DNA of 64,000 nt from Candidatus Bathyarchaeum sp. (GTDB lineage: Archaea > Thermoproteota > Bathyarchaeia > Bathyarchaeales > Bathyarchaeaceae): the NCBI GenBank assembly GCA_026014495.1, contig JAOZIF010000131.1, positions 206 through 64,205 of the forward strand. The letters are read 5' to 3'. Shown here in pieces: positions 3,819 to 63,329 of the stretch. The notes beneath the pieces are model-generated. The model was given only the letters and a program-made list of their open reading frames with translations. It was not told where the DNA came from and ran no database searches. The stretch's first letter is position 1, and each line of letters starts with the position of its first letter. A program made the translations under genes and the position numbers.

Positions 3819-4280
3819 TTATTCTTGTGTTGTTTTTTTGTGTTTTGTTGTTAGGATTGATTCTGTTAGGAATATGGTCATGGATGCTGCGGTTATGAGT
3901 ATGGAGTACCAGATGCCGAGGCTGATTGTCTGGTGGTTAACAAATATTTGTGTTGCTACTAGGGTTATTTCTGCCAGCAGTATTCCCATAAAAAAGAAGG
4001 AATAAAACACCATACGGGGAACCAAAGTTTTGCCAATCCAAACATGACCTGAAACTCCAGTTTTTTCCCGTACAATGTACTCGCCAAGCTCGTTTTTTTC
4101 GATTAACCCTAAGCCTTCCAGTTTTTGCAGTTGCCTGTAAGCTACGCTTGGGCTGCTCAGATTCGCACCCCGCATAACCTCGCGGGGACCTACGGGTCGG
4201 GATTCTTTGACTACAAATGAGTAAACCTGCAACGTGTTTCCTTCTAGCTCATCAGACAACTGCTTGGTCATTTGTTTCAC
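3819..4280 (-). CDS. Membrane-anchored winged-helix (wHTH) regulator-like protein
   Basis: 153 aa; N-terminal wHTH-like segment (PREVMRGANLSSPSVAYRQLQKLEGLGLIEK) followed by 2-3 predicted TM helices; GTG start overlaps upstream stop (GTGA). Confidence 0.65.
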   Translation of the reverse strand: MKQMTKQLSDELEGNTLQVYSFVVKESRPVGPREVMRGANLSSPSVAYRQLQKLEGLGLIEKNELGEYIVREKTGVSGHVWIGKTLVPRMVFYSFFFMGILLAEITLVATQIFVNHQTISLGIWYSILITAASMTIFLTESILTTKHKKTTQE

Positions 4281-5338
4281 CTTGAGTCAAGAAACACTTC
4301 AGCACCAAATTCATCAACAGCAAACGAGTAATCTTCCAGCAAACGCATGTTATAGATGTACGAGTTATCGATTTTTGTTAACTCTACAGTTTTTAGTTCA
4401 TTAGCTTGTGACCAAGTGTCATTCATTGTATTGTTTTCCATGACGACTTCTATGTCTGCAACGTTAGAGGTCAAAACGTTAATTTTGATGCTGCCTGAAT
4501 TCAGCACTTCAATGGTTTTGTTGTTTCCAAAAACAGAATCAATTTTTCGGACGCCTTCAATCAAGATAATCCGCGATTCACCAGACTCAAAGTACCCATC
4601 GAAGTAACCATCACCTGATGCAATATACATTGTAACTCCATCGTAAACAGAATCATCCTCTGGCATATACTGGTATGGCTGAAAAATTCTCCTTTGCTCA
4701 GCAACAAACGCATCCACGTAATGACCACCCCCCTCTTCTGGCTCCTCCACTTCTATTCTGCCTGTAACATCAGTCCATGTTCCGTTCATGTTCATGTAAA
4801 TCGCAGTAAAGACTCCATTCACGTATCTTCGATACAATTGAACCCCCTCCATCCAGTAACCAGTTTCCTCAGCAACTGGAAACGGAGACTCACACATATT
4901 ACCATCAATATCAAAGAAGGGGTATGAACCATCAGTCCATGTTAGATTGTACCATTTACCATCAACAAACGCGCCCTCAGCTGTCCCGCCAGTTCCACTG
5001 GAACTATTCTCTCCAATCACTGGAAGACCTGAAAAGGGCGTGATTTCTCCTGCCGCTGTGAAATCTGCAAGCAACAAAGTCGCATTTACGTCAGCGGGAT
5101 TAGTCACATTAACCCAAATTTGATACTTAACAGAAAGCTCATCAACACCTGAAGCAACATCGTTAGGGTCTAGAACTGTGAAATTAGCAAATACCGTTTC
5201 AACCTCAAATTCTGCGGTTGGTCCTTGTACATGACTAATATACGGTTTAACATCAAGCTCCGACAACACCAAAGGCCCAGCAAAAGCAATTCCTGAAAGC
5301 AACCCCACTAAGGCGATTGCAACTAAAGTTATTCTCAT
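4277..5338 (-). CDS. Secreted hypothetical protein rich in N-x-S/T sequons
   Basis: Signal peptide MRITLVAIALVGLLSGIAFAG after GGTGA SD; many NxS/T sequons; ORF track opens at 5365, ATG 5338 preferred. Confidence 0.7.
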   Translation of the reverse strand: MRITLVAIALVGLLSGIAFAGPLVLSELDVKPYISHVQGPTAEFEVETVFANFTVLDPNDVASGVDELSVKYQIWVNVTNPADVNATLLLADFTAAGEITPFSGLPVIGENSSSGTGGTAEGAFVDGKWYNLTWTDGSYPFFDIDGNMCESPFPVAEETGYWMEGVQLYRRYVNGVFTAIYMNMNGTWTDVTGRIEVEEPEEGGGHYVDAFVAEQRRIFQPYQYMPEDDSVYDGVTMYIASGDGYFDGYFESGESRIILIEGVRKIDSVFGNNKTIEVLNSGSIKINVLTSNVADIEVVMENNTMNDTWSQANELKTVELTKIDNSYIYNMRLLEDYSFAVDEFGAEVFLDSR

Positions 5339-5472
5339 TTTCAATTTCTTCACCAACCAACACATGCTAAAAATTTATTATTAGCTCTGGCGGAGGAACA
5401 ATTTCGTTCCATGGCGGAACACCAAAAAAATGAATTAACCCAAACACCAACTTGGCACAAATAACCCACAGC

Positions 5473-5529
5473 ATATTTGAATACTAATAGCAGAACATTG
5501 TTGAAAAAAAGGTTTTTTCAGAAAACCTG
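5473..5529 (+). repeat. Two-hairpin intergenic repeat, copy a (subtype CAGAACATTGTT)
   Basis: TATTTG-AATA-CTAATA hairpin (1 mismatch), linker CAGAACATTGTT, hairpin GAAAAAAA-GG-TTTTTTC; 3 other copies in window. Confidence 0.7.
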
Positions 5530-5570: not shown

Positions 5571-5855
5571 TCACTTTTCTTTGTCAAAAAAATACAGCAT
5601 AACTGACACAACGACAACCATTATTCCCAACCAACAAACAGCGTTCACTGCCAACGCCGACAAATCCACTACCCACAAGTCAACCGCTCCAACAATTGTA
5701 CTCAAAGTCTGCGTAGCCCAAACCAGCGGAAAACCATAATCAACATGAACATTATCTGGCCAATCAAACCGATTTCCCCAAGTCAAAGCCAAAACCGTCA
5801 CAGCAATCCACAAAACCAAGAAACAAATCAAAATCAAAAAACCTTTCTTAGCCAA
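5571..5855 (-). CDS. Small membrane protein, hypothetical
   Basis: 94-aa ORF with 3 hydrophobic segments; co-directional with flanking genes. Confidence 0.5.
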   Translation of the reverse strand: MAKKGFLILICFLVLWIAVTVLALTWGNRFDWPDNVHVDYGFPLVWATQTLSTIVGAVDLWVVDLSALAVNAVCWLGIMVVVVSVMLYFFDKEK

Positions 5856-5931: not shown

Positions 5932-7314
5932 TTAACCTGTTTGGTTCCAGTAATAAACATGCGAATACTTGCCTTCAACAGGAAACTGCGGATCATCATA
6001 CACTATATCCAAACCCGTGCCATACTGCTCAAGAAGGCTACAGGATAAATCCCATATCTGCTGTGAATTTTCGTCAGCAGCCCACAGCCCCCAAATCTTA
6101 TCATCAATATGCCTCATGCCCCAACCATAGTTTTCGGGCAAAACCAGAACCGCATCTGCCTTTACTGAACCATGCCTTACCTGAGAAGACTGCACCACCT
6201 CATTCCAGAACTGCTCCAAAGCAACAAAATGCTCCTCCTGCAAAGTCCCGTATGGTCCCTGCATGTCTGGAGCATAATTGAAGATGACAACATATTGTGC
6301 CCCATTCTCATACGCCATAACCATCTGCTCGTAAATTGCTTCACCACTGTCCAAATACGGCGGATTATTATACTTCCACGTTATGATGACACCCCATGTC
6401 TTGTTCTGAAGTTCTGCAGCCCCCCTTACTAGCGCTACATCTTTGGCTACCGTTTGGTTCCAACCAACCTGCGCCAACACAGTATCGTAGCCCGACTTGT
6501 AGTCAAACCAAAAAAGAGCATAATCAGACGTAAAATAACTAAAATCACTAGGACCATACCTGTTCAACTCAAAACTGCATTCATCAATGAACCGCTCAGC
6601 AGTTTCATCATAGCTCTGGAACGGACGCACACTCCACAACTCCTCATAAGTGTAAGGCGCATCAACACTTCCCTCCTCTACCGTGTGGACACTGCCTGTT
6701 TCTTCAGTCATAACTGTGACCGTCCCATTAACATAATAAGTGGTAACATAAGATGAGTTTACAGGCGCATTTACTGGCCTTGTCATCACGGTTCCATCCT
6801 GCTTGTAAGTAACAGACGTGTTAGCATCCATCTTATAGCCTGTAATCGTGCCATCAGCCATCTTTCTAACAGAACTTTGCGTCTCCTGTTCATAGACAAA
6901 CATTTCACCATCCAACATTTTTCCCGCATGCTCATCACCAAAATAAATCCCGCCAAACTGGTCGCCCCAATGCCCATCATAGGTGTCCTGCCACATCTTC
7001 ATCAACCATGTACTATCTGTCCCAAAATAGACAACAAACTGCAAACCACAAGAAACAACATAATCCCCTATCTCAGTCACGTTATCTGGACTTTTCTGTA
7101 ACTCGCCAGACTGCAAAAAGAAAACGTTAGTGTAATCCTTCACTTTGTCAACAAGCAGTTTAGCTTCCTCAACAGATTCCCCACAATACGTCACCCCAAC
7201 GTAAAATGGCTCCTGTTCTGAACTAGGACTTGACAGAAAACTAAAAACAACAACCAACAGTAACGACAAAACAAGCAATACAGCAATCACAGCAACTTTC
7301 TTCAAACTATCCAC
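5932..7314 (-). CDS. N-terminally anchored extracellular hypothetical protein
   Basis: 460 aa; N-terminal hydrophobic anchor VAVIAVLLVLSLLLVVVF; alternating beta/alpha-like pattern, no recognised catalytic motif. Confidence 0.65.
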   Translation of the reverse strand: MDSLKKVAVIAVLLVLSLLLVVVFSFLSSPSSEQEPFYVGVTYCGESVEEAKLLVDKVKDYTNVFFLQSGELQKSPDNVTEIGDYVVSCGLQFVVYFGTDSTWLMKMWQDTYDGHWGDQFGGIYFGDEHAGKMLDGEMFVYEQETQSSVRKMADGTITGYKMDANTSVTYKQDGTVMTRPVNAPVNSSYVTTYYVNGTVTVMTEETGSVHTVEEGSVDAPYTYEELWSVRPFQSYDETAERFIDECSFELNRYGPSDFSYFTSDYALFWFDYKSGYDTVLAQVGWNQTVAKDVALVRGAAELQNKTWGVIITWKYNNPPYLDSGEAIYEQMVMAYENGAQYVVIFNYAPDMQGPYGTLQEEHFVALEQFWNEVVQSSQVRHGSVKADAVLVLPENYGWGMRHIDDKIWGLWAADENSQQIWDLSCSLLEQYGTGLDIVYDDPQFPVEGKYSHVYYWNQTG

Positions 7315-7412
7315 TTTCTGTCCTTATGTTTGACATTACTTGAAAAGCATTTTTGTCAAGAAACCTTTACAAGACTGACTTCAAAACCATAACTGGCTCA
7401 AAAAATAAACCC

Positions 7413-7457
7413 CTATTAGACTCCTAATAGAGGTACATTGTTGAAAACAGCCTTTTC
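7413..7457 (+). repeat. Two-hairpin intergenic repeat, copy b (subtype AGGTAYATTGTT)
   Basis: CTATTAG-ACTC-CTAATAG, linker AGGTACATTGTT, GAAAA-CAGCC-TTTTC; ends 1 nt before purE stop codon (7458-7460). Confidence 0.7.
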
Positions 7458-7982
7458 TTAAACTGCCAGCTTGTTAACGTCTTTTTTCTCAGTAACCTTC
7501 TTTACTTCTTCTGCGCCGTCATAGACTGCCTTTGCCATTTTCTGTTTAAACTTGTCCAATTTTTCTTTTAACTCAGGATTATTTAGCGCAAAAATTCTCA
7601 TAGCTACTAATGCAGCATTTTCTGGCTTTGCAACATAGGCAACAGGTATCCCACTAGGCATCGCAGTTGAAGAAAACACCTTCATTCCTCCATGTTTATC
7701 AGAATCTGGAGGACAAGCAATAACAGGGAACCTACTATATCCCGCAACCACCCCAGACAGAGCATCAGACAACCCAGCAACAGTAATGTAAACTATGCTG
7801 GCGGCGCTGTCTTCGTTCTCCTTTAAATCGTTAAGCAGCTTTTCTGGAGTCCTATGAGCAGAAGCAACGTTATACACACAGGAGACTGGAAACTTTTCTT
7901 TTTTCAGAAAACTTTTGACTTTAGCTGCAAAATGCAAATCTCTTGGAGACCCCATAAGAACAACAATCTTCTCTTCTGGCAT
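7458..7982 (-). CDS. purE: AIR carboxylase / N5-CAIR mutase family protein (PurE)
   Basis: 174 aa; MGSPRD, SAHRTPEKL, AGLSDALSGVVAG motifs characteristic of PurE. Confidence 0.85.
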   Translation of the reverse strand: MPEEKIVVLMGSPRDLHFAAKVKSFLKKEKFPVSCVYNVASAHRTPEKLLNDLKENEDSAASIVYITVAGLSDALSGVVAGYSRFPVIACPPDSDKHGGMKVFSSTAMPSGIPVAYVAKPENAALVAMRIFALNNPELKEKLDKFKQKMAKAVYDGAEEVKKVTEKKDVNKLAV

Positions 7983-11930: not shown

Positions 11931-12554
11931 ATGAATAACAACATATTCTCTAAATTTTTAGTATTACTTCTCAGTGCACTAATTATCTCAGCAGCTACTG
12001 TATCCTCCAATTCATTCACCGTAATCGCACAATCAGCCACTCTTGAAGATGTCATTGCAGAAATAAACACGCTCAACGACAAACTAGATGACATAGAAGC
12101 AAACATGACCGCCCTGAATTCAGTATTCAACTCATTACAAAACACAATCAGCAACATACAAACCACTTTGACCTCTTTTAGTGCAACTGCAGCAACCGCC
12201 ACAGACGTAGCCCTTCTTTCTTCAGCTTTGGACAACCTAAACACAATAACCACTGACCTACAATCCATCTTAGCTTCGTTTAACGCTACCACAAGCCAAT
12301 CTGATTTAACCTACATCCACTCAACTGTGGACGAACTGAACACAAACCTTAACGAACTTCAAAACAGCTTGAATTCCCTTATCGATTCTTCCATAACCCA
12401 TGAAGAGCTAGACGCCAAAACAAGCGACATGAATGATGACATCAGCCTGCTTGTAATTCTGGTGATTGTAGCCATCGGTTTGGCTCTGATAGCAGCAATA
12501 GCTGCAATAGGCATCTTTTATAATGTGAAAAAACTGGCAAAGACTTCAAACTAA
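11931..12554 (+). CDS. Surface-anchored coiled-coil/low-complexity protein (signal peptide + C-terminal TM)
   Basis: 207 aa; signal peptide, N/S/T/L-rich heptad-like repeats, C-terminal TM LLVILVIVAIGLALIAAIAAIGIF. Confidence 0.6.
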   Translation: MNNNIFSKFLVLLLSALIISAATVSSNSFTVIAQSATLEDVIAEINTLNDKLDDIEANMTALNSVFNSLQNTISNIQTTLTSFSATAATATDVALLSSALDNLNTITTDLQSILASFNATTSQSDLTYIHSTVDELNTNLNELQNSLNSLIDSSITHEELDAKTSDMNDDISLLVILVIVAIGLALIAAIAAIGIFYNVKKLAKTSN

Positions 12555-12665
12555 TCTTTGGGAAACCGCCCTTTCCTTTAATGTTCAAGAATTTGCAGCA
12601 ACATTTTTTCATTAAATTTACGACCTAACATTTAGTTCTAAACAGGTAGCTTTGAAGCAGTCCTT

Positions 12666-12680
12666 GAGAGCTTATATAGA
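12666..12680 (+). promoter_or_regulatory. BRE/TATA-like promoter (GAGAGCTTATATAGA)
   Basis: Recurrent AGCTTATATA box about 37 nt upstream of GTG start at 12717. Confidence 0.45.
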
Positions 12681-12716
12681 ACCGTTACAGTTCGAAATAC
12701 AAAGAGATGAGTTTAC

Positions 12717-13820
12717 GTGTCCAAGAAATATAACATCGTAGTTTTACTCGGAGACGGCATAAGCAAAGAAGTGGTTCCCGAAGCCGTCAAAGCACTAAAA
12801 GCCACAACAGATGTTGTAACGGGTCTTGATTTAAAATTCACAGAATTTGAGTGCGGATTTGAATACTACCAAAAAACAGGGGAACCTTGGCCAGCCGAGG
12901 CATATCCTGCGTGCAAAGAATCTGATGCCATACTATTCGGCGCTGTGGGGATGCCTGGAGTAGCAGGCCTAGAACATATTGTATACATTCACAGAATACT
13001 TCGCCAAAAACTTGACCTCTACGCCAATGTACGACCAGTCAAAATAAGACCCAACATAGAGTGCCCTTTGGCTGGAAAGAAAGCTGGAGACATCGATTTA
13101 GTTGTGGTGCGGGAAGGAACAGAAGACCTTTACACTCCGATCCGTGGAGTCCTAGAACGTGCAGAAAAGAACGAAGTAGCAATAGACGTTAAAATCGTCA
13201 CCCGAAGAGGCTCAGAGAGAATCGTAAAATACGCTTTTGACCTGTGCAAAACAAGAAACAAAGGCGCACCCCTAGACGGAAAGAAACGGGTAACATGTGT
13301 CGACAAAAGCACAGTTCTCAAAAGCTGTGCCTTATTCCGAGAAGTCTTTGATGAGGTGGCTGAAGGATACCCCGAAATCGAAAAAGATTACGCATTGATA
13401 GATGCTTGGGCTCAGTGGGCAATTAGGCGCCCCGAATACTATGATGTTGTTGTCACAACCAACATGTTTGGCGACATAATCTCCGACCTCACATCGCCGT
13501 TTCAGGGCGGCTTAGGCGTAGCACCAAGCGCCGAAGTTGGCGACAGATATGGAATGTTCAGACCCATTCATGGAAGCGCACCAAAATATTATGGCAAAAA
13601 TGTGGCAAATCCTATTGCAACAATTTTGTCCGCTAAAATGCTTATGGACTGGCTTGCCCAAATGCACAATGACCCCGCTGCTAAAGAGGCTGCAGATAGA
13701 ATCGATAGAGCAGTAGATTTAGTTCTTGAAGAAGGCAAAGTGATTCCACGCGACCTTGGAGGCGAAGCTAAAACCACCGAAGTCGGCGAAGAGATAGCCA
13801 AAAAGATACGACGCCAATAA
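12717..13820 (+). CDS. Isopropylmalate/isocitrate/homoisocitrate(tartrate) dehydrogenase family enzyme
   Basis: 367 aa; LLGDGISKEV, NMFGDIISDL, HGSAP...VANPIATILS signatures of beta-decarboxylating dehydrogenases; substrate not assignable by eye. Confidence 0.85.
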   Translation: MSKKYNIVVLLGDGISKEVVPEAVKALKATTDVVTGLDLKFTEFECGFEYYQKTGEPWPAEAYPACKESDAILFGAVGMPGVAGLEHIVYIHRILRQKLDLYANVRPVKIRPNIECPLAGKKAGDIDLVVVREGTEDLYTPIRGVLERAEKNEVAIDVKIVTRRGSERIVKYAFDLCKTRNKGAPLDGKKRVTCVDKSTVLKSCALFREVFDEVAEGYPEIEKDYALIDAWAQWAIRRPEYYDVVVTTNMFGDIISDLTSPFQGGLGVAPSAEVGDRYGMFRPIHGSAPKYYGKNVANPIATILSAKMLMDWLAQMHNDPAAKEAADRIDRAVDLVLEEGKVIPRDLGGEAKTTEVGEEIAKKIRRQ

Positions 13821-13990
13821 ATGGGCTTCCTTTTTTCTCTTTTTTGTTTTTTGTTCCTGTTTTGTTGTGTTCTGTTCTGCAAAAGATAGTTTTTATTAAT
13901 TGTTGAACCCTTTACTAATGTTGGCGGCGTGAATCATGCTGCTGTTTGTCCAGAAATCTTGTTTATGCATAAACGCCCTTCAAATAACGT

Positions 13991-16504
13991 GTGCAAAAGG
14001 ATAAGCATAACATGAACCAAAAAGCCCTTACCTGTTTCGTTTTAACTGCTGTTCTTCTAGTTTTCTTTTCTTCCGTTTTGTTGGCGATTTATTCCGTTGG
14101 TGCTTCTGAAGCCTTTGCAGAATCCTCAGAGTCAACTGACTGGTCTATGTTTCATCAGAATCTAGCACACACAGGCACCTTAGGGTCAACAGCGCCTGAC
14201 ACAAATCAAACCTTATGGAAGTTTAACACTGGCGGTCAGGTGGGTTCTCCTGTTGTAGTTGACGGCGTGGTTTATGTTGGTGCGTATGATAGAAAAATCT
14301 ACGCTTTAGATGCAGTTAATGGAGAGCAAATGTGGAGCTATGTAAGCGGCGGAGTAGTCGTTTCTTGCCCTGCTGTGGTTGATGGCATGGTTTATGTTGG
14401 CTCAGAAGACTACAACGTTTACTGCTTGGATGCGTCCAGCGGCGCTAAAATATGGAACTATACAACAGACTACTTTGTAGACAGCGACCCTGCCTACGCA
14501 AATGGCATCGTTTATGTGGGCTCAGTTGACAGCAAACTTTACGCTTTGAATGCTTCAACAGGAACTCAGGTTTGGAGTTACACAACAGGGGGTAAGATAC
14601 TGATGTCTTCTCCATCCGTAACTGGAGACCTAGTTTATGTTGGCTCACTAGACAACAACGTTTACGCTTTAGATGCCCTAAATGGCAGTGTGGTGTGGAA
14701 CTACGAAACTAGAGATGACGTTGTTTCTTCTCCCGCTGTTGTAAACGGCATGGTCCTTGTAGGCTCATTAGACAGCAATATTTACTGCTTGGATGCAGCT
14801 AATGGCACATTTATCTGGAATTTTACAACTGGTGGACAACTTTTTTCTTCTCCTGCTGTTGCTGATGACAAAGTTTTTGTGGGTTCAGAAGACGGCAAAG
14901 TTTACGCTTTAGACACCTTAACAGGAGATTACCTATGGAGTTACCGCACAGGAGGCGGTGTATCTTCTTCTCCTGTTGTGGATAACGGCTTGGTTTATGT
15001 TGGCTCACAGGACAACATGGTTTACTGTTTAAACGCATCTACTGGCAACTTGATATGGAACTACGCTACAGAAGACCTTGTGATTTCTCGTCCTGCAGTT
15101 GCTGAGGGCATACTTTATGTTGGCGGATGGGACGGCAAACTTTACGCCTTAGATGCCTCTGACGGCGAGATTGTGTGGAAATTCAGAACTGGAGGAAAAG
15201 TAGATTCCTCTGTTGCTGTGGTTGACGGCATCGTTTATGTTGGGTCACATGACAACAAAGTTTACGCATTAAACGCTACCACCGGCATGGTAGGCTACGA
15301 CTTGGAACTACACAACACTGTCCTGTGGAGTTTCACTGCCCAAGACCTGATTCTACTATCGTCTCCTGCTGTAGCTAATGGACTGGTTTATGTTGGCTCA
15401 TATGACCACAACGTGTATGCATTAAATGCTTCAACCGGAAGTCAGGTTTGGAGCTACAAAACTGGTCTTTATGTTGTTTCTTCTCCTGCGGTAGCTGACG
15501 GTTTGGTTTATGTTGGCTCACAAGACAAAAATGTTTACTGTTTGGATGCTTTAACTGGAGACCTAGTGTGGAACTACACAACAGATGACAAGATTATAAC
15601 ATCTTCTCCTGCTGTTGCTAACGGGATACTCTACATTGGTTCATTAGACGGCAAACTTTACGCTTTAGATGCCTTAACAGGAGATTACCTGTGGAGTCAC
15701 AAAACAGATGACCTGATTTTGTCTTCACCTACAGCAACTAACGATTTAGTTTATGTTGGTTCACAGGATGCAATTGTCTATTGTTTGGATGCAACTAATG
15801 GCACACTGGTGTGGAATTTTACAACCGATGGTCCAGTATATTCTTCTCCCGCACTGGCTGACGGAATGCTTTACCTTGGCTCAAGAGACAATAACATCTA
15901 CTGTTTGGATGCTTCAACTGGGACTTTAATATGGAATTACACAACAGGTGGGTATGTGGATTCTTCTCCTGCTGTGGTTGGTGGCACTGTTTTTGTGGGC
16001 TCAGAAGACAAGAAGCTTTACGCATTAGATGCTGCAACAGGAGATTACATTTGGAGCTACACAACAGAGGATATGGTAGTTTCTTCTCCCGCAATTGCAG
16101 ATGGCGTCGTTTATTTTGGTTCATATGACCATCTAGTCTATGCGATAGGAGAATATTCGTCAAGCCCTCACACCTATACAGTGTCTTTTGTTGCGTCAGG
16201 CTTGCCCAAAGAAACAAACTGGGCAGTAACAATAAATGGTCAAACAAAGAACTCCAGTTCCAATACAATAAGTTTTGAACTATGCATTGGAAATTACGTC
16301 TTTTCTGTTGTTGCACCCGATGGTTACGCAGTTACTACTCCGTCTGGGACAATGACCGTTACCTTGTCAAATGTTAGCTCACAACTGTTTTTCACTTCAA
16401 CTTTTCATGATTCTTCGTGGCTTTTTGGTGCTATGCTGCTTGTTGTGGTATCGCTACTTTTTGTTGCATTAGTTGCATACATGCTTTACAAAAGAAAACA
16501 ATAA
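13991..16504 (+). CDS. PQQ-like beta-propeller repeat surface protein (16 blades) with C-terminal Ig-like region and TM anchor
   Basis: Signal/anchor at N-terminus; 16 repeats of VYVGSxDxxVYALDAxTGxxxWxY...SSPAV at 120-nt period; C-terminal TM LFGAMLLVVVSLLFVALVAYMLY; ATG 14012 alternative start. Confidence 0.85.
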   Translation: MQKDKHNMNQKALTCFVLTAVLLVFFSSVLLAIYSVGASEAFAESSESTDWSMFHQNLAHTGTLGSTAPDTNQTLWKFNTGGQVGSPVVVDGVVYVGAYDRKIYALDAVNGEQMWSYVSGGVVVSCPAVVDGMVYVGSEDYNVYCLDASSGAKIWNYTTDYFVDSDPAYANGIVYVGSVDSKLYALNASTGTQVWSYTTGGKILMSSPSVTGDLVYVGSLDNNVYALDALNGSVVWNYETRDDVVSSPAVVNGMVLVGSLDSNIYCLDAANGTFIWNFTTGGQLFSSPAVADDKVFVGSEDGKVYALDTLTGDYLWSYRTGGGVSSSPVVDNGLVYVGSQDNMVYCLNASTGNLIWNYATEDLVISRPAVAEGILYVGGWDGKLYALDASDGEIVWKFRTGGKVDSSVAVVDGIVYVGSHDNKVYALNATTGMVGYDLELHNTVLWSFTAQDLILLSSPAVANGLVYVGSYDHNVYALNASTGSQVWSYKTGLYVVSSPAVADGLVYVGSQDKNVYCLDALTGDLVWNYTTDDKIITSSPAVANGILYIGSLDGKLYALDALTGDYLWSHKTDDLILSSPTATNDLVYVGSQDAIVYCLDATNGTLVWNFTTDGPVYSSPALADGMLYLGSRDNNIYCLDASTGTLIWNYTTGGYVDSSPAVVGGTVFVGSEDKKLYALDAATGDYIWSYTTEDMVVSSPAIADGVVYFGSYDHLVYAIGEYSSSPHTYTVSFVASGLPKETNWAVTINGQTKNSSSNTISFELCIGNYVFSVVAPDGYAVTTPSGTMTVTLSNVSSQLFFTSTFHDSSWLFGAMLLVVVSLLFVALVAYMLYKRKQ

Positions 16505-20540: not shown

Positions 20541-20643
20541 GGGCCCGTAGCTCAGCAAGGCAGAGCGGCGGACTGGTCCCTCTGGGACTAGGCTGAAACT
20601 CTTAATCCGTAGGTCAGGGGTTCAATTCCCCTCGGGCCCGCCA
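20541..20643 (+). tRNA. Intron-containing tRNA, probably tRNA-Lys(CUU); Thr(GGU)/Asn(GUU) not excluded; encoded CCA
   Basis: Acceptor GGGCCCG/CGGGCCC, D arm GCTC-AGCAAGGCA-GAGC, anticodon stem GCGGA/TCCGT enclosing 33 nt (7-nt loop + 26-nt insert), T arm AGGGG-TTCAATT-CCCCT, discriminator G, CCA. Confidence 0.8.
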
Positions 20644-43645: not shown

Positions 43646-44005
43646 GTAACTATGACTACCTTCTTTTCCAATGAAAACAATTTATTGCTTTCCCAAAACA
43701 CAACCATCTCACCATTCAGATGTAAGATAAATTCAAGGTAAAAACAAAATTTATTAATCAAGATTATTTTTTCGGTAACAGAGTGTCAAGTAAAATTCTG
43801 AATTAACCATTTTTAGGTGGAGACTTATTTCTAATCCTTGTTGTACAACCAAATTCACCGATTAAGACAAAAAGGAGAAACGAGAATTCTAGTAATAGAC
43901 TTGGCAACAAGTGGCGAATCAAATGACACAACATGGCATAACTTACATCTGTAAAATAGTCTCCACGTTGAAACGTGAGAAAATTTGCTATGACTGTGAG
44001 ATATA

Positions 44006-44491
44006 ATGGTAAAACAAAATTGGCGTTACCTCTTATTTCTGATACTGTCACATCACCCCCCAGAAAGATTACATAGAACAATCCGAATAGGATTTAGAAG
44101 AAAACACATCTACCTTTGTTCAAGATGCACTGGAAAAGTTTTAGGAATAATAACGATTTTTTCAGCTAATGCATTTGGACTAAAATTGCCAATCGATTTC
44201 TGTCTTCTTCTTATTTCACTTTTGCCTTTGGTTGCTACCCTTGATTGGTTTACGCAGAGTGCAAAGTTAAGGGAAAGCAAAAACTGGTTACGTATTAGTT
44301 CTGGATTCTTGTTAGGTAATTCTGAAGCATTATTTTTATTGTTAGTAATTGATGGTTTTTTCTTATACGTTTTAGTTGCTTTAGGAATAGCCTCAATTTA
44401 CGCAGTTTTACTATACTTGATTGCAGCTAAAACCAAATGTTTAGATTCATATCTTACTGAAATCAGTCAAATTCAAAATAACTCTGATTAA
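44006..44491 (+). CDS. DUF2085-like membrane protein
   Basis: CSRCTGKVLG motif followed by 3-4 TM helices. Confidence 0.55.
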   Translation: MVKQNWRYLLFLILSHHPPERLHRTIRIGFRRKHIYLCSRCTGKVLGIITIFSANAFGLKLPIDFCLLLISLLPLVATLDWFTQSAKLRESKNWLRISSGFLLGNSEALFLLLVIDGFFLYVLVALGIASIYAVLLYLIAAKTKCLDSYLTEISQIQNNSD

Positions 44492-44593
44492 AAATCTTGA
44501 GCTTTTTACAATACAAAACTTGTGCTAATTGCTGTTCTTAATGATTCTTGGCTTAATTGTTAAGACGTTTAATTGGCATGCATATTAAGTTTT

Positions 44594-44609
44594 GAAAAAG
44601 CTTATATTA
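44594..44609 (+). promoter_or_regulatory. BRE/TATA-like promoter (GAAAAAGCTTATATTA)
   Basis: Recurrent AAGCTTATA box about 41 nt upstream of TTG start 44650. Confidence 0.45.
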
Positions 44610-44649
44610 TTACAACTTTAAACATCTTAATAATCATGGGGGTAAATAG

Positions 44650-44859
44650 TTGACTCAAATCGAAACTAGGCGCTATAGCCTTGCGCTATTAATATGTTTA
44701 GTACTTTTCTGTTGGCCTGCAGCCATCCTCTATTATTTTACTAGACCCAAAATAATTAAACAAATTAATCCACAATTCAATAGAGTTTGCCCTAAATGTG
44801 GACGGATGTTATCTGACAACGTCAAATTCTGTCCCAGTTGTGGTAATGAATTAAGTTAA
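44650..44859 (+). CDS. Small TM protein with C-terminal zinc ribbon
   Basis: 69 aa; one TM then CPKCG...CPSCG; own promoter-like box and GGGG SD. Confidence 0.55.
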   Translation: MTQIETRRYSLALLICLVLFCWPAAILYYFTRPKIIKQINPQFNRVCPKCGRMLSDNVKFCPSCGNELS

Positions 44860-45014
44860 ATCTAAACATACCTTTTTTATTTCGTGACTCGCCGCAGAAT
44901 TAATCGAGTTACACCTTAGGATTCATCACATCACTATTTGTTTCCAAAAAGCCCAAAATCCAGTCGCCGTAGAGGTTGTATTGATCAGACATCAACTAAA
45001 CAAAACGGGCATTC

Positions 45015-45060
45015 ATATTAGGATACTAATAGCAGAACATTGTTGAAAACTAGGTTTTTT
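45015..45060 (+). repeat. Two-hairpin intergenic repeat, copy c (subtype CAGAACATTGTT)
   Basis: TATTAG-GATA-CTAATA, linker CAGAACATTGTT, GAAAAC-TAG-GTTTTT; 33 nt from cobS stop. Confidence 0.7.
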
Positions 45061-45092
45061 CTGTTTTCTTTTGATGCTGCACTTTGCGTTTG

Positions 45093-45836
45093 TTATGCCA
45101 TGATTGCAAGCATTATGATGAGTGCGATTACCCTGTTGATTTCGTTTGTTGCTCCCATAACATCGCCTGTAACACTCTCTAAGGTTTTGTTAGAGTGACT
45201 CGTTAAAACCGCTACCCCCAAGGCCATGCCCACAAGAACAAAGACAAACAATGCCCCAACCAAAACAAAGCCAACCACAGAACATAAAACCACAGACGCC
45301 AACATCTTAGCATCCTTGTTCTCCATAGCCTCAACCACATAATACCCTGAACCCTTGTAAGACGGCTTCTTCCCAAAATACGCCGTCAAAACCATGCTCT
45401 CTTTAGCTATAACCTCAGCAACCACCGCAGCCTTCAAAATATCCAAGCCACCAAAACTTCCAAACGCCAAACCCGTCAAAGCCAAAACAATAACCCCAGA
45501 CGCCACAGCTGCCGCACCAGTAAACATGTCATGCATAACCTCCAGCCTACGCTTCGTGTCGCCCCTAGCCATGGCAGCGTCACTAAAATCCAAAAGTCCA
45601 TCTAAATGATGAAAACCCGTCAACAACTGAAGAACAACCAAAACAAGAAAACCACAAATCAACTCAGGCAAAACAAAACTTGCGCCAAAACCCACAGCCC
45701 CCGCAACGGCTCCAAGAACCAAACCCACAACTGGGCACAAAAAAAAGTACTTAGACAAAGCCTCCATAGACTCCATGCCAATGGGCAAAATCGTCAAGAA
45801 CCCAAACAAACCCTTCAAGCCCTTAATTATCAACAA
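45093..45836 (-). CDS. cobS: Adenosylcobinamide-GDP ribazoletransferase (cobalamin synthase)
   Basis: 247 aa polytopic; FGFLTILPIG, HHLDGLLDFSDA motifs of the CobS family. Confidence 0.85.
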   Translation of the reverse strand: MLIIKGLKGLFGFLTILPIGMESMEALSKYFFLCPVVGLVLGAVAGAVGFGASFVLPELICGFLVLVVLQLLTGFHHLDGLLDFSDAAMARGDTKRRLEVMHDMFTGAAAVASGVIVLALTGLAFGSFGGLDILKAAVVAEVIAKESMVLTAYFGKKPSYKGSGYYVVEAMENKDAKMLASVVLCSVVGFVLVGALFVFVLVGMALGVAVLTSHSNKTLESVTGDVMGATNEINRVIALIIMLAIMA

Positions 45837-45943
45837 GCAACACCTTCAATGGACACATTTCGACTTGAACAAACTATTTCATAAGGCTCTTTTAAGCTTG
45901 CCCAACAAAAAACCCCAAAAAACTATCAGTATATACTGTTTCG

Positions 45944-45958
45944 ACAAAAAGCTTATAC
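45944..45958 (+). promoter_or_regulatory. BRE/TATA-like promoter (ACAAAAAGCTTATAC) for the corrinoid protein/mtrH-like pair
   Basis: Recurrent box about 53 nt upstream of ATG 46011; 12-bp palindrome CAGTATATACTG at 45927-45938 immediately upstream. Confidence 0.45.
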
Positions 45959-46010
45959 GCACGTCTCGCCATAAAGCCCACAGTTATTCAATAAAAAGGA
46001 TGGAATCTTA

Positions 46011-46436
46011 ATGTCTTGGTTAAAATCCATGATGGAAAAAGAACCGCCTGAACCAGAAAACCCCATAGGAATCGTTGTAATTGGCACCCTAGACCCCGAC
46101 GTACACCTAACCCCCAAAGAAATGGTCCGCAAATCACTAACAAAAGCACAATTCAAATGCTACGACGTAGGCAAAAAAGCTCCAGCAGCAGACTTCGCAT
46201 CAAAAGCCAAAGAAGTCAACGCAGACATCATCGCCGTATCAATAAACACAGCACCAGCAAAAAACAACATACCAGCCTTAATGTCAGCAATCGAAGCTGC
46301 AGGCCTAAAAGGCAAAGTCACCATAATGATCGGTGGCGCAGCAGTAGACGAAGATGACGCTAAGGAAATCGGTGCACTATTCGGCGAGACTAGGGAAGAA
46401 GCTGTAGCCCTCGCAAAGAAGGCACTAGGCAAATAA
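46011..46436 (+). CDS. Minimal corrinoid (B12)-binding domain protein
   Basis: 141 aa Rossmann-like B12-binding domain: DVHLTPK (DxH present, Gly of DxHxxG missing), IIAVSIN, IMIGGAAV; no N-terminal helical cap domain. Confidence 0.7.
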   Translation: MSWLKSMMEKEPPEPENPIGIVVIGTLDPDVHLTPKEMVRKSLTKAQFKCYDVGKKAPAADFASKAKEVNADIIAVSINTAPAKNNIPALMSAIEAAGLKGKVTIMIGGAAVDEDDAKEIGALFGETREEAVALAKKALGK

Positions 46437-46480
46437 GTTCAGCGGTTAGTATTCCGCAAAAAAATGAAAAGTGAGCTAGA

Positions 46481-47398
46481 ATGTTTAGATTCGAAAAGGA
46501 ACAAAAAATAATTAACGCTGGCGGCATCAAACTCGGAGGCCAACCTGGAGAATGCCCAACCGCTCTTACTGCAACAATCTTTTACATAGGTCACAAGATT
46601 GTCACAGATAAGAAGGAAGGAAAATTCGACAAGGCACGCGCAGAGACTCTCATCAACAGGATGGACGAGCTCTCTGACATGACAACAAACCCATTCATCT
46701 TGGATGTTGTAGGCACTTCCGTACCCGCATTCCAAAGCTACATCAGCTTTATCGCAGAAGTAACCCAAGCACCCATACAAGTAGACGCTATAAGCCCAAA
46801 ACTCAGAATGGAAACACTCAAATGGGCACACGAAGTTGGGCTGTCCGAAAGGCTCGTTAACAACTCAATCTACAGAGGCGTCAAAGAAACAGAGCTACAA
46901 AACCTAAAGGACTGCGGCGTAAAAGCATCCATTATCCTATGTGACAACCCAACAGACGACACCGTCCAAGGCAAACTCGATGTTTTGCCCGGAATCCTAG
47001 AAATGGGAGACCAAGCAGGAATCGAAGGCGCTCTAATCGACACAGCCATGCCCTCATGGGGTATCGGCGTAGGCGCAGGCCTCAGGTCCATATATGTCAT
47101 CAAAGAAATGTATGGTGACCGCGGAGCCGTCGGAACTGGAATCGGAAATGTATCCGATACACTAGGATGGGTCAAAGGCAACTTCTCAAAAGACGTCAAA
47201 AAAGCAACTGACGCAGCACAGAACGCCATACTGCCAATGATCGGATGCGACTGGATCATGTTTGGTCCAATTGAATTCGCAGAATTCGTCTTCCCCGCAG
47301 TTGCAGTAGTTGACACGTACATACTAACTGCGACCGCAGAGCTTGGTACACGACCAGCAGAAGAAGGCAAGCATCCTCTCTTCAAGCTAGTTGGCTAA
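46481..47398 (+). CDS. mtrH: MtrH-family (pterin-binding) methyltransferase
   Basis: MFRFEKEQKIINAGGIKLGGQPGECPTALTATIFYIGHKIVTDKKEGKFDK closely follows the MtrH N-terminus as recalled; 305 aa. Confidence 0.8.
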   Translation: MFRFEKEQKIINAGGIKLGGQPGECPTALTATIFYIGHKIVTDKKEGKFDKARAETLINRMDELSDMTTNPFILDVVGTSVPAFQSYISFIAEVTQAPIQVDAISPKLRMETLKWAHEVGLSERLVNNSIYRGVKETELQNLKDCGVKASIILCDNPTDDTVQGKLDVLPGILEMGDQAGIEGALIDTAMPSWGIGVGAGLRSIYVIKEMYGDRGAVGTGIGNVSDTLGWVKGNFSKDVKKATDAAQNAILPMIGCDWIMFGPIEFAEFVFPAVAVVDTYILTATAELGTRPAEEGKHPLFKLVG

Positions 47399-47575
47399 AA
47401 CCCTCTAAACATACCCGAAAATTTGGGCTATGTGCCCATCTTTATTTTTTTCTTTAATTCTCTAGTTTTATTATTGCATGTTCTTGCCTCAAAACTAGTT
47501 CTGTTGCACAACCAAATAGGCAATTGAAGAACTACGCTTTTATGTAAAACTGTCAATAAGAAAACTGGTGCACAC

Positions 47576-48145
47576 ATGTCCTCATTAGAAACAGTTATCC
47601 TAGACGTTCTAGAGACAAAGCAACCCAAGAACGTGAAAGAGCTAATTCACTTAGTTCAACAACAAGTTGACGCTACCTTAGATGAAATAGAACAAGAAAT
47701 AAAGAAACTTCACAAAAAGGAACTGGTGGCGCTTGAAGAACCAACACTCCAAAAACAAGACTTCATTAGCTTTGTGTCTCCAAGAAACAGCCGCTGGTTC
47801 TGGCTCCTCATTGGCATTTCTCTTCTTTCGTTCGTTTCAATCCTTTTTCTTCCAGAAACACAAATCCCAGTGTCCTATTTACGTTACATCTTCGGATTTG
47901 TTCTTGTAGCCTTTTTACCTGGATACTGCCTAACAGAAACCCTGTTCCCAATACAAACTGCACTGGACCTAATAGAAAGAATAACTTTTTCAATAGGACT
48001 AAGCTTTGCCATCACCGCCCTAGTGGGTCTATTCTTAAGCTTCACACCCATCGGCTTAACCTTGGCCACAGCACTTCCAGCTTTAGGCTCGATAGTAATC
48101 ATTTTGGCTATGGTGGCTTTAACTCGAAAATACAAACTCCAGTAA
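47576..48145 (+). CDS. DUF1616-like protein (N-terminal wHTH-like, C-terminal TM region)
   Basis: RYIFGFVLVAFLPGYCLTETLFP motif and 4 TM; N-terminal helical domain. Confidence 0.55.
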   Translation: MSSLETVILDVLETKQPKNVKELIHLVQQQVDATLDEIEQEIKKLHKKELVALEEPTLQKQDFISFVSPRNSRWFWLLIGISLLSFVSILFLPETQIPVSYLRYIFGFVLVAFLPGYCLTETLFPIQTALDLIERITFSIGLSFAITALVGLFLSFTPIGLTLATALPALGSIVIILAMVALTRKYKLQ

Positions 48146-48195
48146 CAATCTAGTCTGCAAAATCAACAGAATAAACACTGCTTAATTTTTATATT

Positions 48196-48222
48196 AAAAA
48201 AAGAGAAAAAAGGCCGAAGCCT
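48196..48222 (-). terminator. Hairpin + oligo-T terminator downstream of paralog P1
   Basis: Minus strand reads AGGC-TTCG-GCCT followed by TTTTTTCTCTTTTTTT. Confidence 0.5.
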
Positions 48223-48245
48223 AATGGTCAAAAAAGGTGGGTACT

Positions 48246-49148
48246 CTAAAAGAGTTTATCCCATCTGTTGAACAGATCGAGCGCTGGTTGACCGCCGTAG
48301 TCGCTTAGGGAATCTCTGTATTCGCCCATTTGGGTTACTGTTTTCTGGAACTTTATCATGTTGTCTGCAACGTCTGCAAGGTAAATTATGCCGTCGATGC
48401 CTGTTCTCATAACACGAACTGAAACTCTGATTAGCTGGTCAACTGGTGGGCAGTGGGCTGGGTCGTCTCCTGGACCGCAAACGTAAATGTTAGAATACAC
48501 TGGCTTCTCTGGGAATATTCTCCTGAATGCTCGTGCAATCATTTCCCAGTACCATGAAGTTGCGTAGTTCTGAGAGAACATGACGATATTGAATGCATCA
48601 CATATCTTGTAGAGTTCAGGGAAGTCCATACCGAAACGTTGGTCTGCGTTTGCTGGATCGGGCAAAACTGCCAATACCAATTTGGTTTTTACACGTTCTT
48701 TTACATCTTTGATGAACTGCGTGATGGTCTGGTTGCGCCATTCAAACCAGTCTAATCCACTCTCTTTCCATAGTTTGGTGCATCTCTCGCAGGTGCAGTG
48801 TCCGTGGTCAGCAAAGTGCCAGCTGTTCAAGAATATTGGTTGGCCTGTTTGGTCAACTGCGTTTTCAATGTAATTCAATTGTTCTTCTCTGAATTCTGGA
48901 ACTGTTGGGCAGAGAACGTCCCAGTGCAAGTTGAACTGGTTGTTTCCTCTTACCGCACGGCCCCTCTTTGATTCAGAGACCCATTCTGGGTGTGCACGGC
49001 CAGATACGTTGTCTCCAAAAACTGCAATGTTGTTCCACATGTCATCTTGTGGTGTTCCGCGTCTTCCTGTCTCTGGTTTCAGTCGATAAACGTCAAAGTC
49101 AAATCCTGCAACCTTCTTTGCTTGAAAAAGGTAATTTCCGAATTCCAT
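48246..49148 (-). CDS. Uncharacterised Cys4 (C...CxCxxC) TIM-barrel-like protein, paralog P1
   Basis: 300 aa from ATG 49148 (aligned with P2/P3 starts); conserved WDVLCP, HFADHGHCTCERC, SGLDWFEWRNQT, LPDP, RTGIDG. Confidence 0.8.
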   Translation of the reverse strand: MEFGNYLFQAKKVAGFDFDVYRLKPETGRRGTPQDDMWNNIAVFGDNVSGRAHPEWVSESKRGRAVRGNNQFNLHWDVLCPTVPEFREEQLNYIENAVDQTGQPIFLNSWHFADHGHCTCERCTKLWKESGLDWFEWRNQTITQFIKDVKERVKTKLVLAVLPDPANADQRFGMDFPELYKICDAFNIVMFSQNYATSWYWEMIARAFRRIFPEKPVYSNIYVCGPGDDPAHCPPVDQLIRVSVRVMRTGIDGIIYLADVADNMIKFQKTVTQMGEYRDSLSDYGGQPALDLFNRWDKLF

Positions 49149-49190
49149 GCTTATTCCTCGCTTTGAAACTGCAAAATACATCGATGCAGA

Positions 49191-49203
49191 TTATATAAGC
49201 TTT
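49191..49203 (-). promoter_or_regulatory. BRE/TATA-like promoter for P1 (minus strand AAAGCTTATATAA)
   Basis: About 45 nt upstream of ATG 49148; SD GAGGAA 5 nt before the start codon (GAGGAATAAGC-ATG). Confidence 0.45.
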
Positions 49204-49331
49204 GCTTCATTACCCAAAAATTTTTCAATATAAAAATCCTGACCCGAAATAGAAACCGATTTCTAATCTAGCCACAAAAAAGCGAAAAACGGGTTTTTTC
49301 TCTAAAAAGTGACTTACAATAATTGTGTTTG

Positions 49332-49367
49332 ACAAAAATAAAAAATGGGGTGCGCAAAAAGGCGCAC
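49332..49367 (-). terminator. Hairpin + oligo-T terminator downstream of paralog P2
   Basis: Minus strand: GTGCGC-CTTTTT-GCGCAC then CCCATTTTTTATTTTTG, starting 9 nt after the P2 stop. Confidence 0.6.
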
Positions 49368-49376
49368 TCTATGATG

Positions 49377-63028: not shown

Positions 63029-63192
63029 GTTAATTTCCCCAGATGGTGGTTTAATACAATATTTACGGATAATATAAACTTGCGTTTTTGATTGTGCTAT
63101 GTTGTTTTTCAGAAAAACTTGTTCTGTTACTATTGCGTTACTAATGTGCGTGTGAACTTTTGGAAGCAAATGTGTGTTGTGCTGAAATTTTC

Positions 63193-63241
63193 AGAAAAAA
63201 AGCTGTTTTTCAACAATATACCTCTATTAGGAGACTAATAT
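63193..63241 (-). repeat. Two-hairpin intergenic repeat, copy d (subtype AGGTAYATTGTT), opposite orientation
   Basis: Minus strand: TATTAG-TCTC-CTAATA, AGGTATATTGTT, GAAAAA-CAGC-TTTTTTTC. Confidence 0.7.
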
Positions 63242-63329
63242 GCTGCACAAACGTGTGAATAAAGTATGTCAATAACGTGCGCCTGTTCTGTTACATATTG
63301 GCCTGATTGTGTTGCTCTGTTTTGTTGTG

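Follow-up and report, generated by a model that had tools for sequence, protein, structure and literature searches.

The intergenic element that occurs four times in the 64,000-nucleotide stretch of Candidatus Bathyarchaeum DNA analysed here (the window) is a previously undescribed dispersed gene-end repeat, about 60 nt long, of Bathyarchaeia and some of their viruses. It is present in about one hundred copies per genome (as an order of magnitude) in one clade of Bathyarchaeales-type archaea, and its conserved feature is an asymmetric bipartite sequence with fixed spacing, not a structure. The original prediction that no equivalent had been described has held, none being found in Rfam, among GenBank phages and PLSDB plasmids, or in the literature searched. 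As to its nature, we favour, with a little less than even confidence, a REP-like recombining dispersed repeat that would act both as a bidirectional oligo-T terminator and as a protein-binding module.

The four copies (a to d, in the order of the window) all lie where they had been predicted, with spans that we refined to 5472-5526(+), 7412-7457(+), 45014-45068(+) and 63188-63242(-). Their 24-nt core, CTAATAGNNGNAYATTGTTGAAAA, has exactly four matches in the window (against 0.00 expected from 100 dinucleotide-preserving shuffles), and when the whole window was searched, filters off, with a covariance model made from 72 diverse relatives, the same four copies came out at 57-74 bits (E<=3e-10); everything else scored at most about 22 bits, that is, there is no fifth strong copy. 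The palindrome TATTAG-N4-CTAATA by itself also matches four times, against 2.5 expected in the window, which is not significant: the statistical significance of the copies stems from the supposed "linker" and the A/T block, not from the palindrome. This palindrome had been taken as the architecture common to all four copies, but in copy a the first arm reads TATTTG and hairpin 1 is mismatched. The two subtypes that had been distinguished are real within the window; in the wider family, more than 20 linker variants, which combine with loops at will, form a continuum.

Each copy lies past the stop codon of a minus-strand gene, as had been noticed. Copy a (5472-5526, plus strand; 74.2 bits) reads CATATTTG-AATA-CTAATA-GCAGAAC-ATTGTTGAAAAAAA-GG-TTTTTT-CAGAAAACC; it follows the minus-strand ORF 5571-5855, whose stop is 44 nt away, and precedes ORF 4277-5365(-), which starts about 105 nt downstream. 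Copy b (7412-7457, plus strand; 57.1 bits), CCTATTAG-ACTC-CTAATA-GAGGTAC-ATTGTTGAAAA-CAGCC-TTTTC, directly adjoins (0 nt) the stop codon (7458-7460) of purE (7458-7982, minus strand). On the minus strand, the oligo-T tract TTTATTTTTT (7400-7409) comes directly after hairpin 1 of this copy and, together with the extended stem CCCCTATTAG/CTAATAGGGG, has the hairpin-plus-T-run form of a predicted terminator for purE transcripts; a weak mirrored match to the covariance model (7374-7433, minus strand, 22.4 bits) covers the same region. Copy c (45014-45068, plus strand; 71.7 bits), CATATTAG-GATA-CTAATA-GCAGAAC-ATTGTTGAAAA-CTAGG-TTTTTT-CTGTTTTC, is located between convergent genes, beyond cobS (45093-45836, minus strand), whose stop is 24 nt away. 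Finally, copy d (63188-63242, minus strand; 68.5 bits), CATATTAG-TCTC-CTAATA-GAGGTAT-ATTGTTGAAAAA-CAGC-TTTTTTT-CTGAAAA, lies 87 nt beyond the stop of ORF 63330-63809(-) and upstream of a radical-SAM/HemN-like gene (61742-63169, minus strand). Exact-protein look-ups of the window genes returned no record.

Copy d is followed in tandem by a degenerate second unit at 63104-63146(-), CATTAG-TAAC-GCAATAG-TAACAGAACAAG-TTTTTCTGAAAAAC, which has no ATTGTTGAAAA block and scores 8.7 bits (E about 8). It may be a member of the family, a weak suggestion made mainly by the presence of the same composite of copy d and degenerate unit in ten other loci (L001, L007, L019, L021, L033, L038, L043, L065, L090 and L091). 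A TTCACAC motif (63253-63259, minus strand) stands about 10 nt before copy d and a second one (63150-63156, minus strand) precedes the degenerate unit, while GCACAACAC (63175-63183, minus strand) follows copy d; this flank signature (TTCACAC and GCACAACAC) is peculiar to one subfamily.

The family extends well beyond these four copies. At least 111 loci match the core pattern in about 14 species (one genome per species was scanned, and counts are from the matches listed), almost all of them Bathyarchaeia MAGs, including a Candidatus Bathyarchaeum, and a profile search of the DNA fetched gave at least 148 copies at E<1e-5 in about 15 genomes, about 30 of them outside the strict pattern. Two bacterially labelled loci among the matches listed are short contigs, which are probably mis-binned (the flanks of one, L028, are the same as those of the Bathyarchaeia contig L039). 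Several contigs terminate at the element, which is expected where assemblies break at repeats. The density is one copy per 16 kb in the window. Around 43 metagenomic purE loci of the close clade (PurE at least 79% identical) we counted 32 copies in 161 kb, as opposed to none in 132 kb around 37 loci with distant purE genes (PurE about 55% identical); the element is therefore restricted to one clade.

In general layout, the element runs from CA, just outside a sharp 5' edge, through TATTAG-N4-CTAATA-N7-ATTGTTGAAAA-loop-T6-C(T/A)G to a terminal A or T run. Its consensus, again with CA before the edge, is CATATTAG-GAG(A/C)-CTAATA-G-AGGTAC-ATTGTTGAAAA-CAGT(A/C)-TTTTTT-C(T/A)G-AAAA(A)/TTTT(T). The information profile rises abruptly at this edge (position -12), stays high over about 50 nt and fades after the T-run (about +40), the edge being sharp on one side only. 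CTAATA itself is unchanged in 137 of 138 copies, and it is separated from ATTGTTG by 7 nt, free to vary in sequence, in 71 of a set of 72 diverse copies; the loop of hairpin 1 is always 4 nt in the same 72. The 5' arm occurs as TATTAG (99 of 138 copies), TATTTG (24) or TAGTAG (7). As for the T-run, it is T6 in 70% of copies and T5-7 in 134 of 142 (94%), with complementary A-runs that supply T4-T6 on the opposite strand, and the A and T tracts are about 10 bp apart. The 25-30 nt upstream of the element display no sequence conservation and are A/C-rich and G/T-poor on the element strand in every context.

Two other readings of this anatomy were discarded. One is that hairpin 2 is a generic pre-existing terminator into which a shorter element was received: 166 of 195 such motifs are inside elements, the orphans numbering about 20 against about 6 expected. 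The other is that the element codes for tiny ORFs (MLKTVFF...): changes in T-run and loop length shift the frame, which stays open only in the viral TATTTG copies, and copies overlap the ends of other genes.

It had been argued that hairpin 2 changes in length and loop while keeping its pairing, which would testify to selection on structure. This argument does not stand. None of the 11 proposed pairs changes on both sides across 72 distinct copies, the covariation score (0.034) equals the shuffle mean, and hairpin 2 pairs trivially because an A-run faces a T-run. Mismatches in hairpin 1 affect 28% of 138 copies (including nearly all copies in the JBAZEV and JAOZIC genomes) and are never compensated. 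A structured small RNA or cis-acting RNA motif, with two hairpins and a single-stranded linker, had also been proposed; we consider it very improbable, since covariation is lacking, the mismatches are uncompensated and the folds are no better than those of shuffled sequences (z from -0.12 to -1.97). One can, indeed, draw both hairpins (92% of cells pair in the 72 copies), the unit ends in a U-run, as many small RNAs do, and the A/C-rich, G-poor 25-30 nt upstream could reflect transcription of the element strand. On the other hand, the variants that break pairs are all in one arm, no conserved promoter is found upstream (the real promoters in these genomes are TTATAA/TTTATAT boxes), the orientation relative to flanking genes is random (17 sense versus 14 antisense in tandem contexts), and Rfam gave no family match at either gathering or E<=10 thresholds. 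We think that the asymmetric conservation at fixed spacing probably reflects reading by a protein, not an RNA fold.

The copies were predicted to form an intergenic family at gene 3' ends, in either orientation, behaving like REP/BIME elements or as a bidirectional terminator module, and the distances to neighbouring genes obtained with a simple (naive) ORF caller for 142 copies agree with this. The stop codon of an upstream co-directional gene is at a median of 28 nt from the element (quartiles 7-98), and the T-run at a median of 50 nt (32-128) from the stop codon of a downstream convergent gene; the medians to start codons are 150 nt (98-205) for the element and an upstream divergent gene and 155 nt (71-260) for the T-run and a downstream co-directional gene. 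Only 2 of 118 copies lie inside long ORFs, both orientations are equally common in tandem gene contexts, and several copies are located about 30 nt beyond the 3' ends of tRNA genes, with the tRNA on the other strand. A called 3' end is present within 60-80 nt for only about half of the copies, and 23 of 78 are in spacers that appear divergent to the naive ORF caller; these spacers are long, and small genes or RNAs may have gone unrecognised in them. Whether the tail is an A-run or a T-run has no association with the presence of a convergent gene, so that we abandoned the idea of an adaptation to convergent genes.

A promoter, on either strand, was also rejected: gene starts are 100-350 nt away with a broad spread, the real promoters nearby are TTATAA/TTTATAT boxes, and at one purE orthologue (L169) the element is absent while the promoter of the next gene is kept. 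The element is no better explained as a transcription-factor site defining a regulon for one gene family, the neighbouring genes being functionally unrelated (purE, cobS, radical-SAM enzymes, secreted proteins, tRNAs), and an abundant family of 460-aa secreted proteins has no fixed relation to it.

In the reading that we favour, of a terminator combined with a protein-binding module, the A-run, short loop and T6, often followed by C(T/A)G and an A5/T5 run, would provide an oligo-T tract on both strands, and transcription entering from either side would stop there. The archaeal RNA polymerase terminates at oligo-T, and we infer termination from this knowledge together with the conservation of T6 and the placement of the copies. 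CTAATA-N7-ATTGTTGAAAA, preceded by the looser mirror arm TATTAG-N4, would be read as sequence by a putative protein, probably on double-stranded DNA, as suggested by the asymmetric invariance, the fixed spacing and the independence of orientation. The copies would be kept uniform in each genome by copying or recombination, as proposed for REP elements, and the element would also be exchanged with resident viruses. Some observations do not favour termination. The viral copies lie in an open frame, so that read-through would be needed there, the form of the tail does not track its context, and copies are dispensable. In these loci, a T5+ run occurs within 60 nt of 33% of stop codons and an A5+ run of 28%; oligo-T as a general terminator in these genomes is not demonstrable from such data, and the T5 enrichment gives no independent support.

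The protein could be more central than this. A dedicated Bathyarchaeales protein might enforce the boundaries of transcription units from both directions with the help of the adjacent oligo-T tracts, making the element a factor-dependent terminator/insulator of the Reb1/mTERF type, but we would regard this as distinctly unlikely. To our knowledge, no system of this kind has been described in Archaea. If it existed, about one hundred sites would owe their uniformity to this protein itself or to a recombinase acting as its partner, and resident head-tailed viruses would have borrowed the site at the edge of their packaging operon.

We would grant an equally low probability to the idea that a host or viral protein binds the element, as double-stranded DNA, in some process that is not termination: the element might be an uptake "dialect", a site of chromosome organisation or insulation, or a pac-like signal for the small terminase of the resident viruses. 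An asymmetric, invariant bipartite motif at fixed spacing that is independent of orientation would suit such a site, as would the lineage-specific variants and the conservation at orthologous positions; A/T tracts about 10 bp apart suggest bent DNA, and the viral copy is at the 5' edge of an ORF in the small-terminase position, beside the large terminase. Furthermore, the uptake sequences of Neisseria and Haemophilus also occupy terminators. However, known uptake sequences are far denser than the element (about one per 16-30 kb), no protein of uptake, segregation or packaging is linked to it, a provirus (L081) keeps the viral arrangement, so that it is not an integration site there, and termination explains the conservation of T6 and the placement at gene ends more simply.

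The comparison of orthologous loci tells us how the element evolves. About 26 of 40 close orthologues of purE carry it in antisense directly after the stop codon, as copy b does, and its constant positions have a pairwise identity above 0.9 at this locus, against 0.71 at the 4-fold sites of purE; there is variation in the linker and loop, and the intergenic DNA around the element is not alignable. Taken alone, this would indicate constraint, but conservation at orthologous sites could also come from gene conversion or re-insertion instead of selection at the level of the host. Copy c has orthologues in three loci (L089, L032 and L055) and copy d in one (L093), and only the element can be aligned within the spacers of these other species. 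Variants of the 5' arm and loop are genome-specific, and a copy beside an orthologous tRNA gene bears the variant typical of its own genome: the family evolves in concert within genomes. This pattern is observed directly, while the machinery that would homogenise the copies is deduced from it.

The sites also copy from, or recombine with, each other. About 20 tandem direct pairs have a period of 91-93 nt (100-103 nt in JBAZEV), with at most three copies in tandem and adjacent units that differ in subtype, and one head-to-head composite (L055) has a hairpin 1 common to both units. In close relatives without the purE copy, which is thus dispensable, the break of synteny begins inside hairpin 2 (for instance L170 compared with L171, whose purE genes are 95.8% identical, and L187 compared with L185). 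The window segment 45.0-49.3 kb is inverted in L055, L089 is without 1.3 kb adjoining copy c, copies are found at rearrangement junctions, and truncated copies occur.

Such behaviour raises the question of a purely selfish, non-autonomous mobile element (REP/RAYT, IS200/IS605 or another hairpin-guided single-stranded DNA type), with terminator activity being incidental. The preference for gene ends would then arise because insertions elsewhere are lethal, and the conserved bases would be signals for recognition and cleavage by a transposase. We find this proposal, in both its parts, somewhat unlikely, while recognising how much of the evidence fits it: copy number, genome-specific variants, tandem arrays, contigs that break at the element, copies at rearrangement junctions and truncated ones, host-like variants in viruses, dispensability, and stop codons in all three frames of TATTAG copies. 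HUH enzymes (IS608, RAYT) recognise one strand next to a hairpin, so the one-strand conservation beside hairpin 1 would suit them, and there is a possible long-range concordance of orientation on contigs (P about 0.02, for the matches listed). Against this, neighbours within 8 kb are six in the same and six in opposite orientation, the position is kept across species, and the constant parts change less rapidly than 4-fold sites. The relatives that seem "empty" are rearrangements, and we found no cleanly empty site. In the 1.45 Mb examined there was no credible IS200/RAYT-like ORF (by tblastn with the IS200 TnpA and a motif scan), ORF clustering gave no recurrent transposase-like family beside the copies, and we saw no terminal inverted repeats, target-site duplication or target motif (upstream information at most 0.4 bit).

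The viral copies are informative in several respects. Ten IMG/VR contigs of head-tailed viruses and one provirus (L081, in a 265-kb host contig) carry the element at one conserved site: the TGA of a gene for an 84-aa membrane protein immediately precedes it, and a 111-aa ORF and the large terminase (phrog_2, E 1e-41) follow. This site is a module (typical operon) boundary, where phages commonly put terminators. All eleven copies have TATTTG and thereby lose the in-frame TAG; the reading frame is open across the element and in phase with the upstream gene, the length of the element is constant, and there is no room for a promoter, so that read-through, or a start codon inside the element, must be considered as possibilities at this site. 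Viral copies at this one site differ from each other at 7-10 of 50 nt, yet are only 1-2 nt from different paralogous copies of JBAZEV, from which we infer that the element has probably been exchanged between resident viruses and their hosts. We disfavour a viral attachment site: in the provirus the element is internal, and the viral arrangement is intact across it.

Bathyarchaeia are among the most abundant archaea of sediments, and almost nothing is known of their gene punctuation or genome rearrangement. A motif of about 60 nt at about one hundred gene ends per genome offers a handle for annotating transcript ends and small genes. The same motif could serve as bait for a sequence-specific binding protein, and its variants (1-2 nt from host copies) could be used to assign viruses to hosts. 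More generally, archaea too have REP-like repeats of "genome punctuation", built differently and, in the 1.45 Mb examined, showing no RAYT signature of the bacterial kind, which raises the question of the agent that copies and homogenises them.

How does this element compare with known systems? Some can be dismissed rapidly. The dispersion of copies in both orientations beside housekeeping genes (purE, cobS, tRNA) argues against integron attC sites (RYYYAAC...GTTRRRY), which stand in one orientation after promoterless cassettes beside intI, and K-turns are also rejected, in both cases on reading the anatomy; a CRISPR array does not fit either, the copies being mostly solitary or at most three in tandem, with adjacent units of differing subtype. 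The two ends do not suggest a MITE: they are unrelated (CATATTAG... versus ...TTTTTTCTGAAAA), and neither a flanking duplication nor a parent IS was seen. Unlike MITEs, then, the element has neither terminal inverted repeats nor target-site duplication, nor a recurrent transposase beside its copies. It also differs from IS200/IS605 elements in having hairpin 1 at its very edge, no fixed 5' target (at most 0.4 bit) and no TnpA/TnpB seen nearby. The Correia/NEMIS repeats of Neisseria and the ERIC, RUP and BOX repeats are closer, in that they are dispersed, intergenic and modular, with protein sites and subtypes, and known repeats of this sort affect transcript ends; the mixing of subtypes in tandem even recalls the modules of BOX. 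The present element is, however, much shorter (about 60 nt), with no terminal inverted repeats, TA duplication or parent IS.

With the uptake sequences of Neisseriaceae and Pasteurellaceae (DUS/USS) the element has in common a sequence motif that is independent of orientation, often in terminators, with "dialects" and conservation at orthologous sites, but it is five times longer and 10-30 times rarer, with no known link to competence; we know of no DNA uptake sequence described in archaea. The likeness to the sites of Reb1/TTF-I (for Pol I) and mTERF, where a T-rich release tract stands beside a sequence-specific site (with bidirectional action in the case of mTERF), is one of architecture alone: such a factor is not known in archaea, and we identified none here. 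Like archaeal oligo-T terminators, the element has T5-T7 within tens of nucleotides of a stop codon, and on both strands, but ordinary archaeal terminators have no conserved flank, whereas here an invariant block of about 40 nt accompanies the T-run at about one hundred sites and in many species.

The REP/BIME elements of Enterobacteria and Pseudomonas provide, finally, the most extended comparison. The present element differs from them in having archaeal and also viral hosts, and palindrome arms of 6 bp that are A+T-rich and not the conserved feature (the REP core is G+C-rich, 20-40 nt). It has no GTAG/CGTC at either edge (the consensus begins with CA before TATTAG), its strongest conservation is in the one-sided, supposedly "single-stranded" block ATTGTTGAAAA, oligo-T is built in, its pairs are tandem and direct (91-93 nt) rather than alternating, with only one head-to-head case (L055), and no RAYT gene was seen in the 1.45 Mb examined. 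With no tag, no G+C-rich palindrome and no alternating BIME pairs, the element is not formally a REP. Nevertheless, both are short extragenic repeats present in about one hundred copies or more, after genes and in either orientation, with regularly spaced composites, lineage-specific classes, concerted evolution and rearrangements, and roles in termination, in protection of mRNA 3' ends and in protein binding have been proposed for both.

On the strand that carries the element, the dispersed repeat of about 60 nt found near gene 3' ends in Bathyarchaeia, the 25-30 nt upstream of every copy are rich in A and C and poor in G and T, whatever the context (in the window, for example, at 5445-5471 and 44985-45013). 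The composition of this flank is A.35, C.26, G.15 and T.24, as against.31/.19/.19/.31 in the spacer background; it is the composition that is constrained here, not the sequence. On the other side, in two loci outside the window (L033 and L021), a canonical-looking promoter (AAAGCTTTATATTT) lies about 150-250 nt downstream of the element. After it comes a G+C-rich stretch that is conserved (GGTGTCGTGGATGAGCGGTGACCGCG...) and for which Rfam gave no match; an RNA without annotation or the beginning of a gene may lie here.

Several rearrangements have the element at their borders. The segment running from copy c to the spacer at 49.2-49.4 kb (45014-49376) is inverted with respect to the outside locus L055, whose inversion junction (2040-2300) holds a head-to-head double element with one hairpin 1 (TATTAG-N4-CTAATA) common to both, and the window spacer itself contains an orphan A5-CGGG-T6 hairpin (49284-49300). 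The orthologous region of another locus, L089, lacks about 1.3 kb adjoining copy c (window 43701-45015), encoding two membrane proteins, one of the DUF2085 family and one of zinc-ribbon type, and has two tandem element copies in its place. Tandem arrangement is also seen at copy d (63188-63242, minus strand, as are all features of this composite), beyond which a second, degenerate unit lies at 63104-63146. Each unit is preceded by TTCACAC (63253-63259 and 63150-63156), and GCACAACAC comes after the first (63175-63183). This composite, with its two units, TTCACAC and GCACAACAC, recurs in at least ten loci of other species, where long divergent spacers are a frequent site for it. Just upstream of copy d, a 159-aa ORF (63330-63809, minus strand) matches the radical-SAM domain only in the C-terminal part of that domain (positions 97-166); the gene may be truncated, or its start may be wrongly called.

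As for the other neighbours in the window, two minus-strand genes (4277-5365 and 5932-7314) encode secreted or membrane-anchored proteins without a Pfam match. ORFs similar to the 460-aa one of these two form the largest ORF family among the fetched loci (18 members), and in these loci the family has no fixed relation to the element. Rfam reports a 100-nt tRNA at 20541-20640 on the plus strand (57.6 bits) where ARAGORN makes no call; this is probably an intron-containing archaeal tRNA.

On a larger scale, copies that share a contig and are separated by 20-100 kb have the same orientation in seven of eight contigs (chance about 0.02), the loci concerned being L004/L009, L025/L059, L052/L061/L083, L031/L042 and L036/L057 on contigs 1, 4, 5, 7 and 11 of the Bathyarchaeia MAG CAZEBS, and L010/L019 and L032/L081 on contigs 2 and 3 of the MAG JASFHP. 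Neighbours within 8 kb are evenly divided, six in the same orientation and six opposite. On the evidence of these contigs, there may be an orientation bias at replichore scale.

The element also occurs on two short contigs of bacterial MAGs, L028 (CAZWTK, labelled Gaiellales) and L053 (DATKTE, labelled Alphaproteobacteria). The former shares its flanks with L039, a Bathyarchaeia contig, the latter bears an archaeal-looking tRNA, and both are probably binning errors.

Finally, the element is carried by a family of head-tailed Bathyarchaeia viruses (L144, at 12486-14406, L117, L121, L122, L127, L132, L133, L137, L140 and L153) and by the provirus in the host contig L081. Because the viral variants in L144, L132, L153 and L122 differ by only 1-2 of 50 nt from particular copies of the MAG JBAZEV (L003, L037, L045), the sequences point to JBAZEV-like organisms as hosts of these viruses, and to patchwise exchange of viral and host copies. 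In all eleven the length of the element is constant, and one open frame runs from an 84-aa gene through a single TGA and the element into the following ORF, which could reflect read-through of the stop codon or a start codon within the element. The viral element lies upstream of the terminase genes, a plausible position for a pac site.
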